A DNA stretch of 9,242 bases from a candidate division WOR-3 bacterium (GTDB lineage Bacteria; Hydrothermota; Tepidihabitantia; Tepidihabitantales; CAIPLT01). A program made the position numbers and the translations under genes. Below are positions 1-9,242 of the stretch, one piece after another; the first letter of the stretch is position 1; each line of letters starts with the position of its first letter. Below the pieces are notes generated by a model. The model saw only the letters and a list, made by a program, of their open reading frames with translations, searched no databases and had not been told where the DNA came from. Where the stretch lies: assembly GCA_965649215.1 (NCBI GenBank), contig CBFGJZ010000037.1:1-9242 (forward strand), written 5' to 3'.

Positions 1-114
1 CCAATATTCAGCGGTATTGCCACCGCCGAACTGAATTGTTTGTCCATACAGCGCCCAACTCCCGAAAACAATAAGTAAACTAAAGACAAAGAATAATTTA
101 TTTTTTACTGTCAT
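1..114 (-). CDS. 5' end of an exported protein, truncated by the window edge; possibly an outer-membrane protein
   Basis: Not in the ORF track. ATG at 112-114 overlaps the end of the upstream TlpA-like gene. The frame stays open to base 1 and reads MTVKNKLFFVFSLLIVFGSWALYGQTIQFGGGNTAEYW, with a basic N-terminus, hydrophobic core and likely cleavage before QT. Confidence 0.7.
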   Translation of the reverse strand, partial: MTVKNKLFFVFSLLIVFGSWALYGQTIQFGGGNTAEYW

Positions 115-625
115 CGCATTTTTTAGTTAATTCTCTAATCTTTTCCATAACTTTTTTCTCATCACCTGGCTTATAACCCTGATGGGTAAATATAATCTTC
201 TTGTTCTGGTCAACAATGAAAAAAGTGGGCATTACCTGCACATTATATGATTTACGCAGCTTATTTTCAGGATCTAAAACAATCTGATATTGCCATTTAT
301 GGCCTGCGGCAAAAGATTTAACTTCATCTTTGGACTTTGCTTTATCTTGGCTGATCGCTAAAAAACTAATACCCAATGAATCTATCTCTGGATAGTAAGG
401 TTTTAAGGCATCAAGTTCTTTAATACACATCTTACACCATAATGCCCAAAAACTCATTATCACGGGGCCCTTTTTGATGAGTGAATCAAGCACAACTAAC
501 TTACCATTAATATCATAAAGACTAAAACTGCTTGCATCTTTAAGAGTTATGGTCTTATCTTCTGCGTGCAGTCCTGCACTGATTAATAGTAATATTGATA
601 TTAAAGTTATAATTATCTTTTTCAT
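98..625 (-). CDS. TlpA/ResA-family thiol-disulfide oxidoreductase (redoxin), exported
   Basis: Motifs FSLYDING, SFWALWCKMCIKE (WCxxC), cis-Pro loop VMPTFFIVD and HQGY. Signal peptide MKKIIITLISILLLISAGLHA. ATG at 625, preceded by GGAG, is preferred over the track's start at 637. Confidence 0.9.
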   Translation of the reverse strand: MKKIIITLISILLLISAGLHAEDKTITLKDASSFSLYDINGKLVVLDSLIKKGPVIMSFWALWCKMCIKELDALKPYYPEIDSLGISFLAISQDKAKSKDEVKSFAAGHKWQYQIVLDPENKLRKSYNVQVMPTFFIVDQNKKIIFTHQGYKPGDEKKVMEKIRELTKKCDDSKK

Positions 626-626
626 A

Positions 627-1337
627 TCACTCCACAAACTTGGTTTTTATTGCTTGTAATATTTTTTTACTTTGTCGATCTTGCAGAAAAACAACTCCTC
701 GCATTTTAGGCGGGGCAATGTTGTGATTAAAATTAATAATTGTATCTAAACTATCTGGATAACTAACATTAATGGGTATCGTCGTGAGTTGTCTTACGAC
801 AAAATTAAAAGTACCCCCGAGATCACCTCGGATGCTATCCTCGCATATCGCAATAAAGGCGTAAACTGAATCGTGCCGAATGGTATCCGCAGCACCTATC
901 TTCAGGTGTAATTGACCGCTATTAACCGTCACACTACCCGTTAATTCTAAATTGTAACTTGGCACAATTGATTTGGCAACAATATAGTGCTGATTAAAAA
1001 CTGTATCATAAGCATTGGGATTATTCTCAAAAACAACATCTGTCCCATCAAAAACTACGGTTGGATAAGCTAAAATATTATAATAATTCATTCGTTCTTG
1101 AATCTGGGGTAGTTCAGGTTGTACAGAATGATTATAAGAGACAATCACTATTGAATCTCCATAATTAGTATGCAATTGAACAAGCGACTGCTCCGCAGCC
1201 GCACAAAAAGGTCAACCATCCTCAGTAAAAAACTCAACTAAAACAACGCGATTAGTTGGTGTCGGCAAGATGCGCGGTGCTTCCGAACAAAAAACAAAAA
1301 ACAGCGGTAATAACAATAAAAATCTCTCTATCTTCAT
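627..1337 (-). CDS. Omp28-like thioredoxin-fold selenoprotein, predicted lipoprotein, UxxC (U42-P-F-C), 236 aa
   Basis: The track ORF 627..1175 extends in frame through TGA at 1212-1214 to ATG 1337: MKIERFLLLLPLFFVFCSEAPRILPTPTNRVVLVEFFTEDG-U-PFCAAAEQSLVQLHTNYG. U occupies the first Cys position of a thioredoxin CxxC after the RVVLVEFFT strand. Later motifs YPTVVFDG and ICEDSI...FVVR. A SECIS-like hairpin follows the UGA. Confidence 0.88.
1184..1202 (-). promoter_or_regulatory. SECIS-like hairpin for UGA 1212-1214
   Basis: GCGGCUGC-GGA-GCAGUCGC: 8-bp stem (one G-U) with a G-containing loop, starting 9 nt after the UGA; GC-rich in an AT-rich gene. Confidence 0.75.
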
Positions 1338-1376: not shown

Positions 1377-2027
1377 TTACTTAACTTTAAGTTCGATGTC
1401 GTCAGCAAGGACCCTTGCTTCACATGAAGCACCTCAGCATCCATTGGTTGTATCCATAACAACAATTTGAAGCTTTTTTATATCCGAAACAGTAATTCCG
1501 GATAAGTGACTCAATTCTTCGCTAATCTTAAAGCTGTAATTGTACCAGCTGTCCATATGTGGTACATTTATTAAATGTAGCGTGCTAGTATTTTGCCAAG
1601 GGCAATGCGCTGTTTTAGAGACGATACGGGTTTCACCTAATAATTGGTAGCTGTCATTTAAATATCTTAAACAAATTGCCGCGGCTGCCCAATAAGAAGC
1701 ATTGGGGTTATATTCAATTGCTCGTAAATTTGCTTTCGCAGAAAACTGAAGATCACTTGTTGGAAAATCTATGGTCTGGTACAATTTAATGTGTCCGGCA
1801 TTGATCTTTTCTATAACTAACTCAAAATCATTATCTCCATCTAAGTTTTGATAGCGAGCAATCTCGTCTGAATAATTTAATCCGGAAGTATTCCTTTGCC
1901 ACCCGCTATTTAAGTCTTGCTCAAAATCACCATTAACAATCACTTTATTTATTATTGGCGATGAAGAATTACGATGGCAAGCACTAACAATAATAAAAAT
2001 TACTAATAGAAAAAAAGTTTTACGCAA
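1377..2027 (-). CDS. Lipoprotein with CBM4/9-like jelly-roll domain, selenoprotein with C-U198-GAS-C motif, 216 aa
   Basis: TTG start and lipoprotein signal MRKTFFLLVIFIIVSA-C. NGDFEQ...W opens the domain. The track stop TGA (1434-1436) is followed in frame by GASCEARVLADDIELKVK-TAA(1377), which matches the post-UGA sequence of the paralog (SGHCMARVLADDVAL). A SECIS-like hairpin is present. Confidence 0.87.
1404..1419 (-). promoter_or_regulatory. SECIS-like hairpin for UGA 1434-1436
   Basis: AGCAAG-GGUC-CUUGCU, starting 14 nt after the UGA, with possible lower pairing AUGU/ACAU. Spacing and loop are identical to the paralog's hairpin, with compensatory stem changes. Confidence 0.85.
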
Positions 2028-2036
2028 TTACCTTAA

Positions 2037-3950
2037 TTATTCCACTAATACTACTCGATAGCTAACTTTCTTGTGGTTATCAAGTACTAAATCAATGAAA
2101 TACACACCTGAATTTAGTTTCTGATTGTAGTCGTCTTTGCCATCCCACACTACAATATTTTCTTGATTATTTTTAGTATTTATAGTTTTAACACAATTAC
2201 CTAGTGTATTATAAATCCGCACTTTAATCTCTCGATGATTATCTGCTGAATATTGAAAATAAACCTGCTTACCAATTTTGATTGGATTAGGATAAATTCT
2301 AAATTGAGTTGAACTAATTTGGGTTTGGGGTGTTTCTTGAATGCCTGACAAGGTTATACCAAAAAATTTCATTATAGAATCAAGCAATATCTGTTTTGTC
2401 GAAGGTGCCGTACCATCTACCAAACTACCAAACTCAAACGAAACACCGATTGTCCGATAATTACCTGCATTATAAGCAACGCCACAATTATAACTATTAT
2501 TGCCGTCTTGGAATATCACATAACCAGTTGTCGCATTAATCCGATCCATATAGTTATTTTCTCCTGAATAATTGAAGTCCATTCCTGCAGTAAAAGTGTT
2601 ACTTACACCGATAACCGGTCCCATATCGCCGCTGCCATCGCTTACCCCAACTAAACCAAACATCGTATTAAAATTATGTCCGCCCACTTGTGGGTCATAA
2701 TACCAGACTTCGCCTCCTTCCATGTAAACTCGACCACCGCTGTTAAGATAATTAATTATCGCAGTTGCCTCAGCACCATTGGCAGCAATCCGATAATTAT
2801 TCGGGTAGACACCACAACAAACAAAGATCGACCGATAAATATCTAAGGTCGGTTCCGCAAGTAAATTAGTTGTAATCGCCCCAGTATAGCCATTAAAAGT
2901 TAAAAGATTGTGAATCGTTTGACCTGATGAAGGTGTGATATCTGGGTTCCAAACCAAATAATGATAAGAACCAACCACCAACGTGAAATTAAAGGTATCA
3001 GAAAAACTCCCTTCACTTGCAATTAATCTAAATACCGCATTGTGTCCCTGGGGACAAGAAGTGGAAACTGTAATTTGATAAGGATCCGCTGTATTCTCTT
3101 TAATGCTATCAATTAAAATACTTCCAAAATAGCCGCTATTATCGTTGATCGTTATATAGGGACTGCTACTCTGAAGGGTGGTGTTTAAATTGTTAAAATT
3201 AGCGCCACCAATATTGCGGAGAAGCGCGGTTAGATTAACGGTTTCACCTGGATCTAAACGCCCATTATTATTGCCACTTCCATCATAAACATTAGCTTTA
3301 ATAAAGCTCAAGTAATGATTGGTGCCATTATAATTTAAGGCCACATCATCGGCGAGGACCCTCGCCATACAATGACCACTTCAGCACCCATTGGTTGTAT
3401 CTAATAGAGCAATTTGAACTTTTCTAATTTGGGTTGGATTTACTCCTGGTAAATTAGCAAGTTCGTTATTTAAGTTAAAACTATAATTATACCAGTTATT
3501 CGGGTCCGTAACATTAATTAGATGAATCGTACTGGTACTTGTCCAAGGACTATGCGGGGTTTTGTAAGCAATACGGGTTTCGCCAAGTTGATTACCGTTT
3601 GCGTCCAGATATCTTAAACAAATCGCTGCGGCTGCCCAATAAGTTGCAGTTGGAGTATATTCAAGGGCATACAATTTTGCAGTAACCGAAAAATCCAAGT
3701 CAGTTGTGGGAATATTCACCGTTTGATATAATTTTGCATATATTTCATCATATTTTTTAACTCTTACCTCATAATCAGGATCAAGATCAAAATAAGTTTG
3801 ACGATCAATCGTATCTGAAGTATTCTGAAGTCCAAAAGCACTTGACCAACCAATATTCAAGGGTTGTTCAAAATCGCCATTTGTTAACAAACGTCCACCC
3901 AGACCAATACTTATTATTGATAAGAACAAGATCAAAAACTTTACCCTCAT
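2037..3950 (-). CDS. Secreted multidomain selenoprotein, 637 aa: CBM-like domain with C-U190-SGH-C, Ig-like domain, alpha/beta domain and C-terminal T9SS/FlgD-Ig-like sorting domain
   Basis: Track ORFs 3381..3965 and 2037..3368 are in one frame, separated only by TGA-AGT-GGT-CAT-TGT. ATG 3950 has AAGGAG 6 nt upstream and a signal peptide MRVKFLILFLSIISIGLG. Internal GNNNGRLDPGETVNL and YLNSGGRVYMEGGE segments. The C-terminus has IYPNP...IYNTLG...WDGKD...SGVYF. Confidence 0.87.
3339..3377 (-). promoter_or_regulatory. SECIS-like hairpin for UGA 3381-3383
   Basis: Upper stem GGCGAG-GGUC-CUCGCC (3366-3351) starts 14 nt after the UGA; possible lower stem GGUCAU/GUGGCC. Confidence 0.85.
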
Positions 3951-3967
3951 CGGGAACTCCTTCAATT

Positions 3968-5017
3968 TTATTTCAGTATTATTTTTCCTATTTTAGAGCC
4001 GGCGTCGCATTCAAACCGATAAAAATAAGTACCAGCACTCACCGAGTTAGAAAAATCACATTTCACCGATTCGTTATTACTACGAGTAACGCCTGATATT
4101 GTTTTCACATTTCGACCACTAATATCAAAGATTGTAATTTTATATTTACTTCCTTGGTTTAAAGCAAAAGTAAACCATACCTGATTATGAGCAGGATTTG
4201 GTGAAACTGAAATTGGATAATTATTAATTTTGCTTTGGTTGGGTTCTTCAACACCTGTTAAATTTAAATCTAGAAGTTTTATTTTTGCACCTTGATTAAT
4301 TCGTTTCGTAATATTCACATTCATTGGATCTTGAATCATCGCAATTATTTCAACTCGGCTTTCAACCCATCCCGATGCAATTGAAAACGGATAACTGACG
4401 GTTATGGAATCCTGGTAGTTTAAAGTTACTGGTGTACCAATATGGTCAGGCAGATAGTCGCGTGCGACATGATTATGCCACTGGTCACCATTAGGTGTTT
4501 GTCGATAAATACTATCTTCTGTAATTACAAATAATACATTGTGCTGTAAAGTCGTTACAGTATCACTGATAAAACGTACATAGATTGTACCTGTTCGAGT
4601 TGCTTGATTATAATCTCCCCAAATTCGTGCATTAATACGTGATTCCACTGCTGCCCGCTGTAATATTAAATTTTCCCAATTCGAATAACTACTACCTGCG
4701 CTATAGTCGCCATCTATCCACAACCATGGGGTATAATAAGTTGTACCCGGCATGGGTAGATAAAAAAATCGGTTGCGTGCTTTTAATAAATACATTCCAT
4801 AACTTGCATAACTAGAATTGACATGCATTTCCACCGCTGCCGTTGCTCGGGGATAATTATATGAGATTTGTGCCAGTACACTACTGGCCGTAACACAAGA
4901 AGCTCAGCCCTCTGAATATGCTTCTTCGCAAACCACTACGCGATCATATGCTTGAATTGAAGCAATGAGCCCCAATCCAACAATTATTAATAGGGTACTA
5001 AATAATTTATTAATCAT
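3968..5017 (-). CDS. Omp28-like thioredoxin-fold selenoprotein, UxxC (U38-A-S-C), with signal peptide and C-terminal T9SS-like sorting domain, 349 aa
   Basis: The track ORF 3968..4834 extends in frame through TGA at 4904-4906 to ATG 5017: MINKLFSTLLIIVGLGLIASIQAYDRVVVCEEAYSEG-U-ASCVTASSVLAQISYNYPRATAAVEMH. Motifs YTPWLWIDG and VITEDSI...HNHVARD. The C-terminus has VSPNP...IFDISGR...AGTYF...KI. GGGGG lies just upstream of the ATG. Confidence 0.88.
4868..4898 (-). promoter_or_regulatory. SECIS-like hairpin for UGA 4904-4906
   Basis: GCCAGUA-GUG-UACUGGC (4888-4872): perfect 7-bp stem with GU in the loop, starting 15 nt after the UGA; possible lower pairing UUGU/ACAA. Confidence 0.78.
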
Positions 5018-5134: not shown

Positions 5135-5228
5135 GGAGGCGGATGGGTGCTGGTGTGCCTGCTGGACTTCAAATCCAGGTGTTCTTCGAAAGGAGAACGG
5201 TAGGTTCGATTCCTACACGCCTCCGCCA
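5135..5228 (+). tRNA. selC: tRNA-Sec (anticodon UCA)
   Basis: 94 nt. Acceptor GGAGGCG(G)/(A)CGCCTCC-G-CCA; 6-bp D stem GGGTGC-TGGT-GTGCCT; anticodon arm CTGGA-CTTCAAA-TCCAG with TCA at 5169-5171; long variable arm GTTCTTC-GAAA-GGAGAAC; T arm GTAGG-TTCGATT-CCTAC. Adjacent to selB. Confidence 0.97.
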
Positions 5229-5231
5229 ATA

Positions 5232-7262
5232 TTAAATTTTATTTATAATTTTAAGCGAAAGCGTCCTCACATCTCCTTGTCGGACGGTAATCCCTTTAGA
5301 ATCAAAATAAATTAAAAGGGGTAGGACCGCTCGTCGACTGGCATTTAGTAAATCCCTAAATTGTGAAACTCTTATTTCTTTGTTGTGCTTTAAGAATTCA
5401 ATCAATTTTAACTCTGCTTCTTTAACATATTTGTGATGCAAAACTAAGCCCTCGCCAATATTAATTAAGATTTTATTGTCAAGCAAATACTGATAAGCTT
5501 TTTTAATATCATTCTCTTTGCCAATTATTTTCGATTTCACATCCTTAAAATCAAGCGGTTGAAACTTTTGTGCTAATATCAATTTTTCAATTCTTTCAAC
5601 ATAGTCGGCAATAGTTTTCTCTAAAGCCACCTTAAATTCACTAAGATATATTTTTTTATCTGCTGAAATTTTAATTACTCCNNNNNNNNNNNNNNNNNNN
5701 NNNNNNNNNNNNNNNNNNNNNNNNNNNNNNNNNNNNNNNNNNNNNNNNNNNNNNNNNNNNNNNNNNNNNNNNNNNNNNNNATCTTGTTGAAGTTCTTCAA
5801 TTGCCCAGTCAAAAAGTATTTTATCTAAAGCAGGGCTTGCCTTCTTTAATAATTCTAAAGCTGAAATACCAATACTACTCGGATTGTTTTTATGATAATC
5901 TTTTAGCTCTTCAATAATTTTTTGCTTTAATCTTTCTCTATTCTCAGTGTGATAGTATAGTTCTTTTTTTTCATCTAAACACAATACCTTACGCTGAGCA
6001 ATTAACTGTCCCAATAAATCTTTCACTTCATGCATCGGCAGATTAATATCTTTAGCAATTTCAATTGGTTTTTTAGCCAAGTCAAAATTTGTTCTTAAGT
6101 CTTCTTCAACCAAAACTATTGGTTCAGCCGTTTCGGTACGTGCTAAATGGCCTAATAATTCCTCATTATAGCCTTTGATTTTTATAGCTTTTGGTTCTAG
6201 AATAATGCCACCCCCTATGGTTGTTTGAGGCGAATAAGTTCTTATCACAAACCGGTCGTTGATGCCGCAAACCACAGATTCTTCTAAGCGGAATTGGACA
6301 ATCGCTTTATCCCCCGGATTTAATAATTTCTTATCCAGAAGCACAACTCGACCTAACACTTCTTTAGTACCGATATGAATTCGCAATCGTTCAAAGTTTC
6401 TTAGTGGCTTATCAATTCTACTTAACAGGTATAAGGAAGCATTTACAAACATGGATGGTTCATAAAAACCACCTTGCGCTAAAACATCACCTCTTTCAAT
6501 CTCGTCTTTTTCAACGCCCACTAAATTAATTGCCGCCCGAAATCCTGTACCGACTTCGTCTACTTGTTTGTTGTGTACTTCAATCCCTCGTACCTTAACT
6601 ATCTTCTTTTGAGGTAAAAGTTCCAATTCTGCTCCGACTTTGGTTTTCCCTGATAAAATAGTACCAGCCACCACGGTTCCAAACCCCTTAATGGTAAAAC
6701 AACGGTCTATCGGCATTCTAAAAATTCCTCGGTCAATTTTAGTTTCGGTCTCACCAATCAATTTATCTAATATGCGCTTTAGCTCATCAATACCTTCTAA
6801 AGTAACATTTGAAACCGAAACAATTGGCGCACTTTCCAGAAAAGAATTGCGCATTAACTCTTTAACATCATTCATAACAATCTTCAATCGTTCCTCTTTT
6901 ACTAAATCTTTCTTAGTAATCACTACGATTCCTTTTTTAATCGCCAATAGTTTTAAAATTTCTAAATGCTCATAGGTTTGGGGCATAATACCATCATCAG
7001 CCGCAATCACAAATATAACAATATCTACAGTCGAAGCACCGGCTACCATATGTCGAACAAATTTCTCGTGTCCAGGCACATCAATAATCGTAGCATTATC
7101 CCCATAAAAGACGAAACCTAAATCAGTGGTCATACCTCGTTCTTTTTCTTCTTTTAATCGGTCTGGATCCACACCCGTCAAAGCTTTAACTAAAGCGCTT
7201 TTACCATGGTCAATATGACCAGCCGTCCCAATAACAATGTGTCGTTTTATCGTATCAGTCAT
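5232..7262 (-). CDS. selB: Selenocysteine-specific translation elongation factor SelB (contains an assembly gap)
   Basis: [64 protein letters not shown], and a C-terminal winged-helix FRDLLNASR...PLLIYFD...RQGDVR. Located next to selA and selC. Confidence 0.97.
5682..5780. other. Assembly gap (99 N)
   Basis: Run of N inside selB. Confidence 0.99.
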
Positions 7263-7268
7263 ATTTTA

Positions 7269-8668
7269 CTACATTGTTTCTCGAAATGCTTGTAATATAA
7301 TCTCACCTTCGCCAGGAAGAATGGTACGAAAATCTAACATTAATGCGTTCGCTTGAACTCTACCAAAAATAGGTATTTTATATTGTCTCAATTTTCTTGC
7401 TAATTCTTGGCTGGGCATAATTTTTGGTTGGATCGAGACAACATAACTATCAAGTTCTTTGGTTGATAACGAACCGCCGCCAATTTCGGCNNNNNNNNNN
7501 NNNNNNNNNNNNNNNNNNNNNNNNNNNNNNNNNNNNNNNNNNNNNNNNNNNNNNNNNNNNNNNNNNNNNNNNNNNNNNNNNNNNNNGTCTGCAAGGTTGC
7601 TTCTAATACCGCATTTGTTAATTTATCACAACGCAAAGCCCGAGTGAGCGGGTGTTTCTTAATCTTTTCAATATATTCTTTTTTGCCAACAATAATTCCT
7701 GCTTGGGGTCCACCGATTAATTTATCGCCACTAAAACAGACAACATCAGCGCCTGTTTCGATACTTTCTCTAACCATTGGTTCTTTGGGTAAGCCGTATT
7801 TACTAAAATCAATCAACGCGCCACTTCCTAAGTCATCGACCACAGGAATATGATACTTTTTACCTAATGCGACTAGTTCAGACAATGGTACTTCTTTAGT
7901 AAAACCAGTTATTTGATAATTAGATTGGTGGATCCGAATAATTGCACCAGTTTCTGGCTCTAAACCTAATTCACTGTTGGATTTTTGATTAATTTTTCTT
8001 TCTCTCTTTTTGCCTTTATTTTTAATGTGTATCGCTTGTTCATAATCTTTAAGATGGGTCCGATTTGTTGTCCCAACTTCTTTCATAATACAACCTGATT
8101 GTGCCATAATTTCAGGAATCCGAAACGAACCGCCGATTTCAATCAACTGGCCACGAGAAACAATTACTTCTTTGCCTTGAGCTAATGCTCGCAAAACTAA
8201 TAAGGTTGCGCCAGCATTATTGTTAACTACAATACCTGCTTCGGCACCTGTTAAAATTTGGAGTAGTTTACTAATCTTTTTATAGCGGTCATCTCTTTTG
8301 CCTTCATCGTCAATTTGTAATCTTGAATATGCTTTAGCGACATCTGCCAATATCTCCGGGATACCACTGACAAAAGGTGCTCGACCAAGGCCGGTATGAA
8401 GCACAATGCCAAGGGCATTTATCGCATACTTAAAATACCTTTGAGTTAGATAATTCAATTCGCCAACTATCATCTGTCTTAAATTATCTGTATTTAACGA
8501 TTCGCCTTTAAGCAGTTTTTGTCTAAACTCATCAACCTTATCTCTAATAATCTTAACCAAGTATCTATGCTCTAATCTATCTTCAAACTCTTTAATTTCC
8601 TGCCAATTAAGAATTTTATCAACCGACGGAATATCTTTAAGTAATGATTTTTTATTAATCGTTGCCAT
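7269..8668 (-). CDS. selA: L-seryl-tRNA(Sec) selenium transferase SelA (the frame change falls inside an assembly gap)
   Basis: IPSVD, INALGIVLHTGLGRA, VVNNNAGA, VSRGQLIEIGGSFRIPEIM, EVGTTNRT, DLGSG and the PLP-lysine motif FSGDKLIGGPQAG. After the gap the correct frame is AEIGGGSLSTKEL...PIFGRVQANALMLDFRTILPGE...RETM-TAG(7269), 6 nt before the selB ATG. The track's end at 7400 is in the wrong frame. ATG 8668 is preferred as start. Confidence 0.96.
7491..7586. other. Assembly gap (96 N)
   Basis: Run of N inside selA. Confidence 0.99.
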
Positions 8669-8673
8669 AAACA

Positions 8674-8701
8674 ATTATAGATTAGAGTATTAAGATGTCA
8701 A
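8674..8701 (-). promoter_or_regulatory. sigma-70-type promoter of selAB, probably giving a leaderless mRNA
   Basis: TTGACA (8701-8696), 16 nt, TATAAT (8679-8674), then 5 nt to ATG 8668; no Shine-Dalgarno visible. Confidence 0.72.
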
Positions 8702-8822: not shown

Positions 8823-9242
8823 TTACGCTTCAATTCCTAAATCTTTCAGTTTTTTATATAATTGCACACGTTGAATATTTAATGCTTTAGCGGTTTTAGT
8901 TTTATTATAGTTGTTTTCCGCCAATACTTTTAAGATAAATGCTTTTTGAAATTCATTGGTTGCTTGTTTGAGTGTCTGATTGGTATTAACTTGCGAGTTG
9001 CTAGTCTGTTCGATTAATGGTATTAAATCTTTTGATTTGATTTCTTTTTCTTTAATTAAAATTGAAGCCCGCTCCATTAAGTTTTCTAATTGTCGGACAT
9101 TACCAGGCCATGATTGATTCATCAAAAATTCGATCGCACTTTGTGAAAGTCGCTTTTTCATAACACCGTTTTCTTCGCAGTATTTCTCTAAAAAATAATC
9201 AGCTAAAGCACCTATCTCTTCTTTGCGCTCTCTTAATGGTGG
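8823..9242 (-). CDS. Sigma-54-dependent transcriptional activator (NtrC/AtoC-like), C-terminal part with Fis-type HTH; 5' end outside the window
   Basis: The frame is open to the window edge: PPLRERKEEIGALADYFLEKYC..., WPGNVRQLENLMER, and HTH NKTKTAKALNIQRVQLYKKLK. Confidence 0.93.
   Translation of the reverse strand, partial: PPLRERKEEIGALADYFLEKYCEENGVMKKRLSQSAIEFLMNQSWPGNVRQLENLMERASILIKEKEIKSKDLIPLIEQTSNSQVNTNQTLKQATNEFQKAFILKVLAENNYNKTKTAKALNIQRVQLYKKLKDLGIEA

Follow-up and report, generated by a model that had tools for sequence, protein, structure and literature searches.

The window analyzed here is a stretch of 9,242 nucleotides from a candidate division WOR-3 bacterium (contig CBFGJZ010000037.1), with a base composition of 35.7% G+C and with all its protein genes on the minus strand (Table 1). 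Two adjacent genes, one long and one short, are the main subject. Each carries an in-frame TGA codon that precedes a hairpin in the coding sequence, and each codes for an exported domain with a predicted fold like that of carbohydrate-binding modules (CBMs). The UGA codons of both genes are very probably decoded as selenocysteine (Sec, or U in sequences), and sequence comparisons suggest with equal force that the proteins carrying this residue form a single family.

Table 1. Features of the window, with positions counted from its first nucleotide. T9SS, type IX secretion system; bSECIS, bacterial selenocysteine insertion sequence.
Feature	Position	Strand	Remarks
Long candidate selenoprotein gene, 637 amino acids, Sec190	2037..3950	-	Single in-frame TGA; ATG at 3950; TAA stop
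UGA of long gene, predicted to be read as Sec	3381..3383	-	
bSECIS-type hairpin of long gene, GGCGAG-GGUC-CUCGCC	3351..3366	-	Loop 20 nucleotides past UGA; codes for part of M-A-R-V-L-A
Predicted Sec-containing CBM-like β-sandwich of long gene	3321..3893	-	From about NGDFE to ADDVALNY; approximate limits
T9SS type A C-terminal sorting domain of long gene	2064..2297	-	Approximate limits
Short candidate selenoprotein gene, 216 amino acids, Sec198	1377..2027	-	Lipoprotein-like signal (…VSAC), then β-sandwich alone
UGA of short gene, predicted to be read as Sec	1434..1436	-	
bSECIS-type hairpin of short gene, AGCAAG-GGUC-CUUGCU	1404..1419	-	Loop 20 nucleotides past UGA
tRNA-Sec, anticodon UCA	5135..5228	+	Rfam RF01852, 77.5 bits (gathering score 47)
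selB-like gene	5232-7262	-	Named from translated sequence
selA-like gene	7400-8674	-	Named from translated sequence; tblastn matches in L022 and L034
Omp28-like/thioredoxin-like candidate selenoprotein gene, Sec38	3968..5017	-	U-x-x-C; T9SS sorting domain
Smaller thioredoxin/Omp28-like candidate selenoprotein gene, Sec42	627..1337	-	U-x-x-C
TlpA/ResA-like CxxC thiol:disulfide oxidoreductase gene	98..637	-	Pfam and NCBIfam matches
3' end of a gene running off the window	8823-9242	-	Helix-turn-helix end like that of sigma-54-type response regulators

When TGA is read as Sec, the long frame passes through DTTNGC-U-SGHC-MARVLADDVAL and adds 447 residues after Sec, and the short frame reads DTTNGC-U-GASC-EARVLADDIELKVK before it stops. 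A TTG at position 3965 is a possible alternative start for the long gene. The two domains share 50% identity (106 of 213 positions, E 2e-75) in an alignment that passes through the TGA, in agreement with an initial annotation of this DNA, which described both copies as stopping at DTTNGC-TGA with similarity beyond. The same annotation considered the two genes to be paralogs. Their domains are indeed homologous, but the first copy runs on to position 2037, as the head of a multidomain T9SS cargo protein.

From the N to the C terminus, the long protein is composed of a signal peptide, the Sec-containing β-sandwich, a CARDB-like immunoglobulin (Ig) domain, an α/β domain and a T9SS type A sorting domain, which scores 31.5 bits with TIGR04183 (cut-off 23) and 28.3 bits with PF18962 (cut-off 27). 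The short protein has no sorting domain. A Cys followed by H-R-N after its signal is conserved in close homologs, and its LPAM_1 score (14.9 bits) is under the cut-off of 20, which makes the lipoprotein assignment tentative. From domain order and signal sequences, we infer that the long forms are surface proteins with the Sec domain as their N-terminal head, and the short forms tentatively look like the domain alone on a lipoprotein.

Evidence for recoding comes from relatives of the two genes. A genome scan limited to a single genome per species yielded 42 loci. Two of these (L041 and L042) have only an N-terminal NGDFE-type stretch in common with the domain and are not members of the family, and L037 stops before the site and was not counted. 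In all 39 loci that contain the site, an in-frame TGA is present at the aligned position and the frame is conserved afterwards, with no TAA, TAG or Cys codon among them. The conservation of the site is thus more than chance. One of these loci (L020) carries both the TGA and the hairpin and was left out of the alignments because its contig ends 35 nucleotides later.

A word-index search for proteins yielded 27 homologs of 177 to 208 amino acids, every one of which stops where the open reading frames (ORFs) of the window stop, with Cys as the last residue in 24 (NGC in 20) and Gly in three. After exclusion of P0002 and P0009, which are near-copies of the window proteins, the 25 aligned homologs terminate at one alignment column. 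No longer homologs of the domain were found by this word-index search, which is weak evidence. Source labels of the protein homologs name candidate division WOR-3, and the genome loci are labeled as Latescibacterota, Stahlbacteria, Cloacimonadota, TA06 and Eisenbacteria/Eiseniibacteriota, along with some bins labeled Desulfuromonadaceae. On the basis of these sequences, both window genes belong to one large family of anaerobic candidate phyla related to the Fibrobacteres-Chlorobi-Bacteroidetes (FCB) group. Two of the loci, L003 and L039, each gave two tblastn matches of more than 120 residues to the domain, which suggests that they hold tandem or nearby paralogs like those of the window.

To estimate the size of the family, 1.84 billion representative proteins were searched with a profile. 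At E <= 1e-3 this matched 498 representative clusters, and the number fell to 243 at E <= 1e-10 and to 99 at E <= 1e-30. Among the best 150 of the 498, 115 stop at the Sec site, 17 run through it, five stop earlier and 13 are fragments or unclear. The last residue of the site-stopping representatives is Cys in 81, Gly in 25, Ser in three, Thr in three, and Tyr, Ala and Arg in one each. The 17 relatives that lack Sec have an uninterrupted frame through the site. One of these, P0041, carries Cys in place of Sec and is the single clear case of a Cys homolog aligned with Sec; P0053 has Ala between two retained Cys residues, P0084 has Val at the site, and the loops of the rest differ or are shorter. 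Since Ala or Val can occupy the position, the fold does not require the Sec residue.

A quick maximum-likelihood tree of 57 rows, in which the Sec column was kept as C, implies at least three changes between Sec and non-Sec forms, with those that carry Sec falling almost into a single clade. Nine non-Sec rows constitute a distant group. P0041 is nested within a Sec clade with a support of 100 in the Shimodaira-Hasegawa-like approximate likelihood ratio test (SH-aLRT), in a different subclade from the window proteins, and the CCxxxC homologs that the initial annotation had proposed to look for were not found by these searches. As judged by these sequences, Cys forms of the family are very rare.

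Covariation supports a hairpin downstream of each UGA. The hairpins of the window have a stem of six base pairs and a GGUC loop, and the stems of the two copies differ by compensatory changes. In an alignment of 40 sequences (38 loci and the two window copies), this hairpin is the sole structure predicted by RNAalifold. Base pairing is maintained in 98.7% of 234 stem cells, and four of the six stem pairs exhibit compensatory changes on both sides, affecting 34 cells. The covariation score is 0.447, compared with 0.190 +/- 0.020 in shuffled alignments, and none of 500 shuffles reached it; when the pairing was slid along the alignment as a control, 20.5-61.5% of cells paired. The loop is GGUC in 37 of the 40 sequences. 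Over all 40, it starts 20 nucleotides past the UGA in 23, 17 nucleotides in 15, and 23 and 26 nucleotides in one each. The 20-nucleotide core has a mean energy of -10.0 kcal/mol (range -5.5 to -13.2). The value for the long copy is -11.0, and its minimum-energy fold includes the hairpin (z -2.49, with 3 of 200 shuffles folding as well).

These values agree with the consensus bSECIS model in section 5 of a 2026 review (PMC13188914). Loop and spacing conform in all 40 sequences and core energy in 38, the two exceptions being the short copy and L038. The initial annotation had noted an identically spaced hairpin in the two genes and had suggested a search for homologs that conserve it together with the UGA; both the spacing and the joint conservation are borne out. 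The stem is built from the codons for A-x-V-x-A at the start of the last β-strand, A-[K/E/R]-V-[F/S/L]-A-D, so its compensatory changes produce the coupled residues K/F, E/S and R/L within that strand. The comparison therefore indicates that it is the SECIS stem that imposes the conserved A-x-V-x-A-D stretch.

The fold of the Sec domain was modeled with AlphaFold for the short copy, using the 40-sequence alignment as input. The model is a β-sandwich with a predicted local distance difference test score (pLDDT) of 90.4 and a predicted template modeling score (pTM) of 0.83. Sec198 is placed in a turn between strands 185-195 and 202-215, and the second of these is confidently within the sandwich. 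The final strand thus follows the UGA, and the model upholds the proposal of the initial annotation that the domain is complete only when the codon is read through. The block of residues 191-200 around the turn has the lowest pLDDT of the domain (82). A full-length model of the long protein has a pLDDT of 69.5, with residues 412-506 below 50, and because of this poor quality it was kept out of the fold search. For the tail of the long protein, no solved relative was found by a sequence search of the PDB.

A Foldseek search of the PDB matched the domain to CBM11, CBM16, CBM61, CBM4, MAM, F-box sugar-binding and tailspike β-sandwich structures, with E values from 1e-5 to 5e-7, query-normalized TM-scores (template modeling) of 0.37-0.52 and identities of 9-16%. 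A PDB search with the sequence of the domain gave only a marginal match, to the C-terminal module of a glycoside hydrolase family 31 (GH31) enzyme (E 0.0012). No Pfam or NCBIfam (release 20.0) model matches the domain at E <= 0.1. With regard to CBM_4_9 (PF02018), neither window protein gave a match, and of ten homologs one scored 17.2 bits, short of the 25.9-bit cut-off. The initial annotation had assigned a CBM4/9-type fold; a CBM-like sandwich is supported by AlphaFold and Foldseek, but the domain does not reach the threshold of the Pfam family. As modeled, it is a CBM-like β-sandwich with a likeness at the level of the fold, and carbohydrate binding is only putative. The Sec domain shares its fold class with CBM4/9, CBM11, CBM16, CBM61, MAM and F-box sugar-binding domains, and like CBM-type sandwiches it begins with N-G-D-F-E and closes with D-D-x-x-L. 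Unlike them, it exceeds the threshold of no Pfam CBM model, and none of the structures listed is described as a selenoprotein.

Public gene calls present the locus differently. They record the head of the long protein as a 'hypothetical protein' of about 188 amino acids, and enter its tail, about 440 amino acids in length, on its own as a 'T9SS type A sorting domain-containing protein'. The calls for proteins P0179-P0298 and P0002-P0028 are likewise split or truncated at the UGA. If these annotations were correct, the TGAs would be ordinary stops of separate genes, the ATG at 3366-3368 might begin the downstream ORF of the long gene, and the hairpin would serve as an attenuator or a coupling element. 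However, the short copy has just 18 codons after its TGA and no start codon among them, yet this stretch is conserved at the protein level. Moreover, all 39 loci maintain the frame across the site while the spacer after the UGA varies by whole codons, the 17 non-Sec relatives cross the site with sense codons, and the modeled domain needs the strand encoded beyond it. The downstream product would also possess a sorting domain for secretion but, judged from its sequence, no signal peptide. We find this explanation scarcely credible and have rejected it.

We also reject a variant genetic code (4 or 25), under which TGA would stand for a standard amino acid; this is the least believable explanation that we considered. 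Such a code could account for the Trp at the Sec site of P0238, a Joint Genome Institute (JGI) protein of 628 amino acids, which is probably the product of a gene call made under code 4. Against it, each of the four candidate selenoprotein genes of the window has exactly one in-frame TGA, always ahead of a hairpin, and the selA and selB frames have none. In the two Omp28-like/thioredoxin-like genes, at 3968-5017 and 627-1337, the hairpin has a loop that begins with G and is located 22 and 17 nucleotides past the UGA, respectively. The second of these genes terminates at a genuine TGA (627-629), and its end shares 11 nucleotides with the beginning of the TlpA-like gene, whereas the other genes of the window stop with TAA or TAG. 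Consequently, TGA acts as both a stop and a Sec codon within a few hundred bases. The presence of tRNA-Sec and the Sec machinery likewise argues for the decoding of UGA as Sec.

The initial annotation had named three outcomes that would speak against a new selenoprotein family, namely homologs that end at the site with TAA or TAG or are not conserved beyond it, a fold that is complete without the extension, and a family that is already catalogued. None of these was found. Full-length homologs of the long protein share the Sec head and the CARDB-like domain, differ in their middle domains, and end with the sorting domain. Other members consist of the head and a sorting domain only, or of the head by itself. 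The tail with CARDB, α/β and sorting domains was also observed behind other N-terminal parts (P0272, P0284, P0289 and P0295), and in P0284 it is preceded by PF03785, the Ig-like domain from the C terminus of C25 peptidases. Because the same tail follows other N-terminal parts, including a C25-peptidase-like one, the Sec domain appears to fill a head slot that is open to an enzyme as well.

The pattern shared by the whole family is [C/G/T/S]-U-G, then three to six residues, then A-x-V-x-A-D. Among 40 members verified at the DNA level, the residue before Sec is Cys in 20, Gly in 11, Thr in five, Ser in two, and Tyr and Arg in one each, and the residue after it is Gly in 32. The initial annotation had highlighted a C-U-x-x-x-C motif. 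This motif is present in the window and its near relatives, but it is not a family-wide feature, since the preceding Cys occurs in only half of the members and the Cys at position +4 is restricted to near relatives of the window. A candidate partner Cys can nonetheless be identified in all 40: a vicinal C-U pair in 20, a Cys in a strand with the sequence CW in 15, CxxU in two, and UxxxC, UxxC and CxxxU in one each. In a set of 111 representatives, one of 78 forms with a vicinal Cys has the CW Cys, versus 15 of the 33 others, and six more of these 33 have only a Cys located two to five residues upstream.

The vicinal arrangement resembles that of mammalian thioredoxin reductase, whose redox center is an adjacent Cys-Sec pair in the sequence Gly-Cys-Sec-Gly at the end of the protein. 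The commonest form in the family described here, [G/x]-C-U-G, is similar. In thioredoxin reductase, however, the motif is on the flexible C-terminal tail of a flavoenzyme, whereas here it is internal and lies in a predicted β-hairpin turn of an exported lectin-like domain, and half of the family has no vicinal Cys.

The window also carries components needed for Sec insertion. The tRNA-Sec gene and the selA-like and selB-like genes are all located within it, with masked runs of N at 5682-5780 in the selB-like gene and at 7491-7586 in the selA-like gene. No selD gene was found within the window, which is the only DNA to which this result applies. With the NCBIfam model NF045500 for the Omp28-related selenoprotein, the products of the genes at 3968-5017 and 627-1337 score 43.1 and 25.8 bits, far under the cut-off of 200, and thus are divergent relatives of that family at best. 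The name given to the partial gene at 8823-9242 is a reading of its sequence, backed solely by one 33%-identical tblastn match in L021.

Some of this gene arrangement recurs elsewhere. The Omp28-like U-x-x-C gene is directly upstream of the Sec domain gene in five loci (L001, L002, L004, L019 and L037), and in two of these (L002 and L019) a thioredoxin-like selenoprotein gene and a TlpA gene are located downstream. In L022, genes for SelA, TlpA and an Omp28-like protein are nearby. No conserved partner genes were found among 53 flanking ORFs sampled at 15 other loci (two to five per locus).

Based on these observations, we propose that both UGAs are decoded as Sec via a short SECIS hairpin of the SelB type that lies within the coding region, and that Sec would be an exposed, reactive selenol or selenolate in the modeled turn that joins the two final strands of an exported sandwich. 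The Sec might cycle with a nearby Cys as a selenylsulfide; C-U-G forms would use their vicinal Cys for this, and other clades a Cys elsewhere. In the clade of the window, the thioredoxin/Omp28-like U-x-x-C selenoproteins encoded alongside could service this center together with the TlpA-like reductase. As a whole, the combination of Sec recoding, a single exported family and selenol or selenylsulfide chemistry is probably the best explanation of the data. The selenylsulfide redox mechanism taken separately is a tentative proposal, whose chances we place slightly below even.

Several observations dampen our enthusiasm for one or another part of this proposal. The 115 site-stopping representatives are known from protein alone. 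The conserved hairpin of the short copy is weak (-7.1 kcal/mol), and the minimum-energy fold of its 73-nucleotide region favors another hairpin directly after the UGA (z -1.49, with 17 of 200 shuffles folding as well). The hairpin core of L038 is weaker still (-5.5 kcal/mol). A scan of the window against Rfam (E <= 1) matched none of the hairpins to a family, and reported only tRNA-Sec and a chance match to CrcZ. For the redox pair, the occurrence of Ala or Val at the site in non-Sec relatives is unfavorable, as is the lack of any upstream Cys candidate in 12 of the 33 representatives without a vicinal Cys, as judged from the part upstream of the site. The complementarity of the vicinal and CW Cys residues comes down to four and three changes and two independent pairs (sign test p = 1), and a phylogeny-aware test has no power. 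With so few evolutionary events, this pattern is only suggestive. P0041, which has Cys in place of Sec, lacks the CW Cys. The Omp28 and TlpA partners were not seen among the 53 flanking ORFs of the 15 other loci (Pfam, E <= 1e-5), and a T9SS surface cargo would have no obvious supply of electrons from a periplasmic TlpA.

Two other roles for the residue are compatible with the same recoding. The initial annotation had suggested a redox-switched binding site, a metal-binding site or a catalytic selenol as possible functions. Sec and a neighboring Cys or the backbone might form a site, on a secreted or surface-exposed module, that binds a soft metal or metalloid (for instance Hg, Cu(I), As or Cd). 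Several selenoproteins with a C-U dipeptide are related to metals or organometals, including the MerB-like SaoL, HgcA, MbdU, SaoC and a CopZ-family form (PMC13188914), half of the 40 verified members here have this dipeptide, and the domain carries a conserved Asp-rich loop, D-P-D-P-D-Y-E. The dipeptide is equally missing from the other half, however, and no metal-binding domain model of Pfam or NCBIfam was matched. Metal-transport and metal-resistance genes are absent from the 53 flanking ORFs, and the neighbors that are conserved, where present, are proteins of the thiol:disulfide type. We therefore regard a metal site as unlikely.

Still more improbable, in our estimation, is a Sec that neither catalyzes nor binds, and serves instead as a structural staple of the last β-hairpin or as a selenium-dependent switch of expression. 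In the switch version, translation in the absence of selenium or SelB would stop at the UGA and leave a non-functional, truncated head. Non-Sec relatives with Ala, Val or a shorter loop do retain the strand that defines the end of the fold, and the turn that holds Sec is the least confident part of the modeled domain. Nevertheless, Sec persists in 115 of the best 150 representative clusters, in forms that are almost one clade, and only a single replacement by Cys was seen; we would not expect a mere staple to retain so costly a residue in this way. Selenol or selenylsulfide chemistry on an exported domain is the function that we favor.

The family does not correspond to any known group of selenoproteins that we could identify. 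The 119 families and subfamilies in Table 1 of the 2026 review (PMC13188914) include the Omp28-related selenoprotein (GOS_C or NF045500, also given as 'hypothetical protein GOS_C') and no counterpart of the Sec domain. No description of the family was found in the literature, although supplementary tables might hold further candidates. The judgment of the initial annotation that no recognized family fits is therefore sustained. Six families in that table have a C-U dipeptide (SaoL, SaoC, HgcA, MbdU, KCU-star and CopZ-family form 2). They share the adjacent Cys and Sec with the family described here and are otherwise unrelated to it, and their NCBIfam models do not match the window proteins at E <= 0.1. 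The Omp28-related selenoprotein offers a different likeness, being an exported candidate from the same kind of organisms that often carries a T9SS sorting domain. However, its U-x-x-C site is thioredoxin-like and located toward the N terminus, its fold is different, and the Sec domain has no match to NF045500.

The BSepDB resource is described as covering 111 previously reported families. The deep-Sep paper describes the new families DG, DW and DF, which come from Desulfobacterota and are all reported to have Cys-containing homologs. We considered these as possible identities and rejected them in view of their Desulfobacterota origin and because the accessions listed for them in Table 1 of the 2026 review were unmatched in our NCBIfam scan. 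As far as the deep-Sep families are described in that paper, the family reported here differs from them in having an exported lectin-fold domain, a large membership (498 representative clusters at E <= 1e-3) and a Sec that is almost never swapped for Cys. This is very probably a genuine and large selenoprotein family in a lectin-type fold, and it appears not to have been catalogued.

A more speculative function can also be envisioned. A near-obligate Sec at the tip of a lectin-fold head on T9SS-anchored proteins might capture targets covalently through Se-S bonds, rather than take part in classical oxidoreductase catalysis, with the SECIS stem and the final strand constituting one co-evolving element. 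Such a head might capture thiols or disulfides carried by particles, prey or hosts, or else polysulfide or elemental sulfur. We consider this scenario unlikely, and if true it would represent a new functional class of selenoprotein.

The findings have broader implications for the organisms that carry this family. Across poorly known anaerobic phyla, an entire class of surface proteins is systematically split or cut short by genome annotation. The hairpin provides a clean natural case in which an RNA element, the SECIS stem, appears to dictate the amino-acid pairs of a structural β-strand. Finally, the family offers a testable entry to the role of selenium at the cell surface of uncultured bacteria related to the FCB group.

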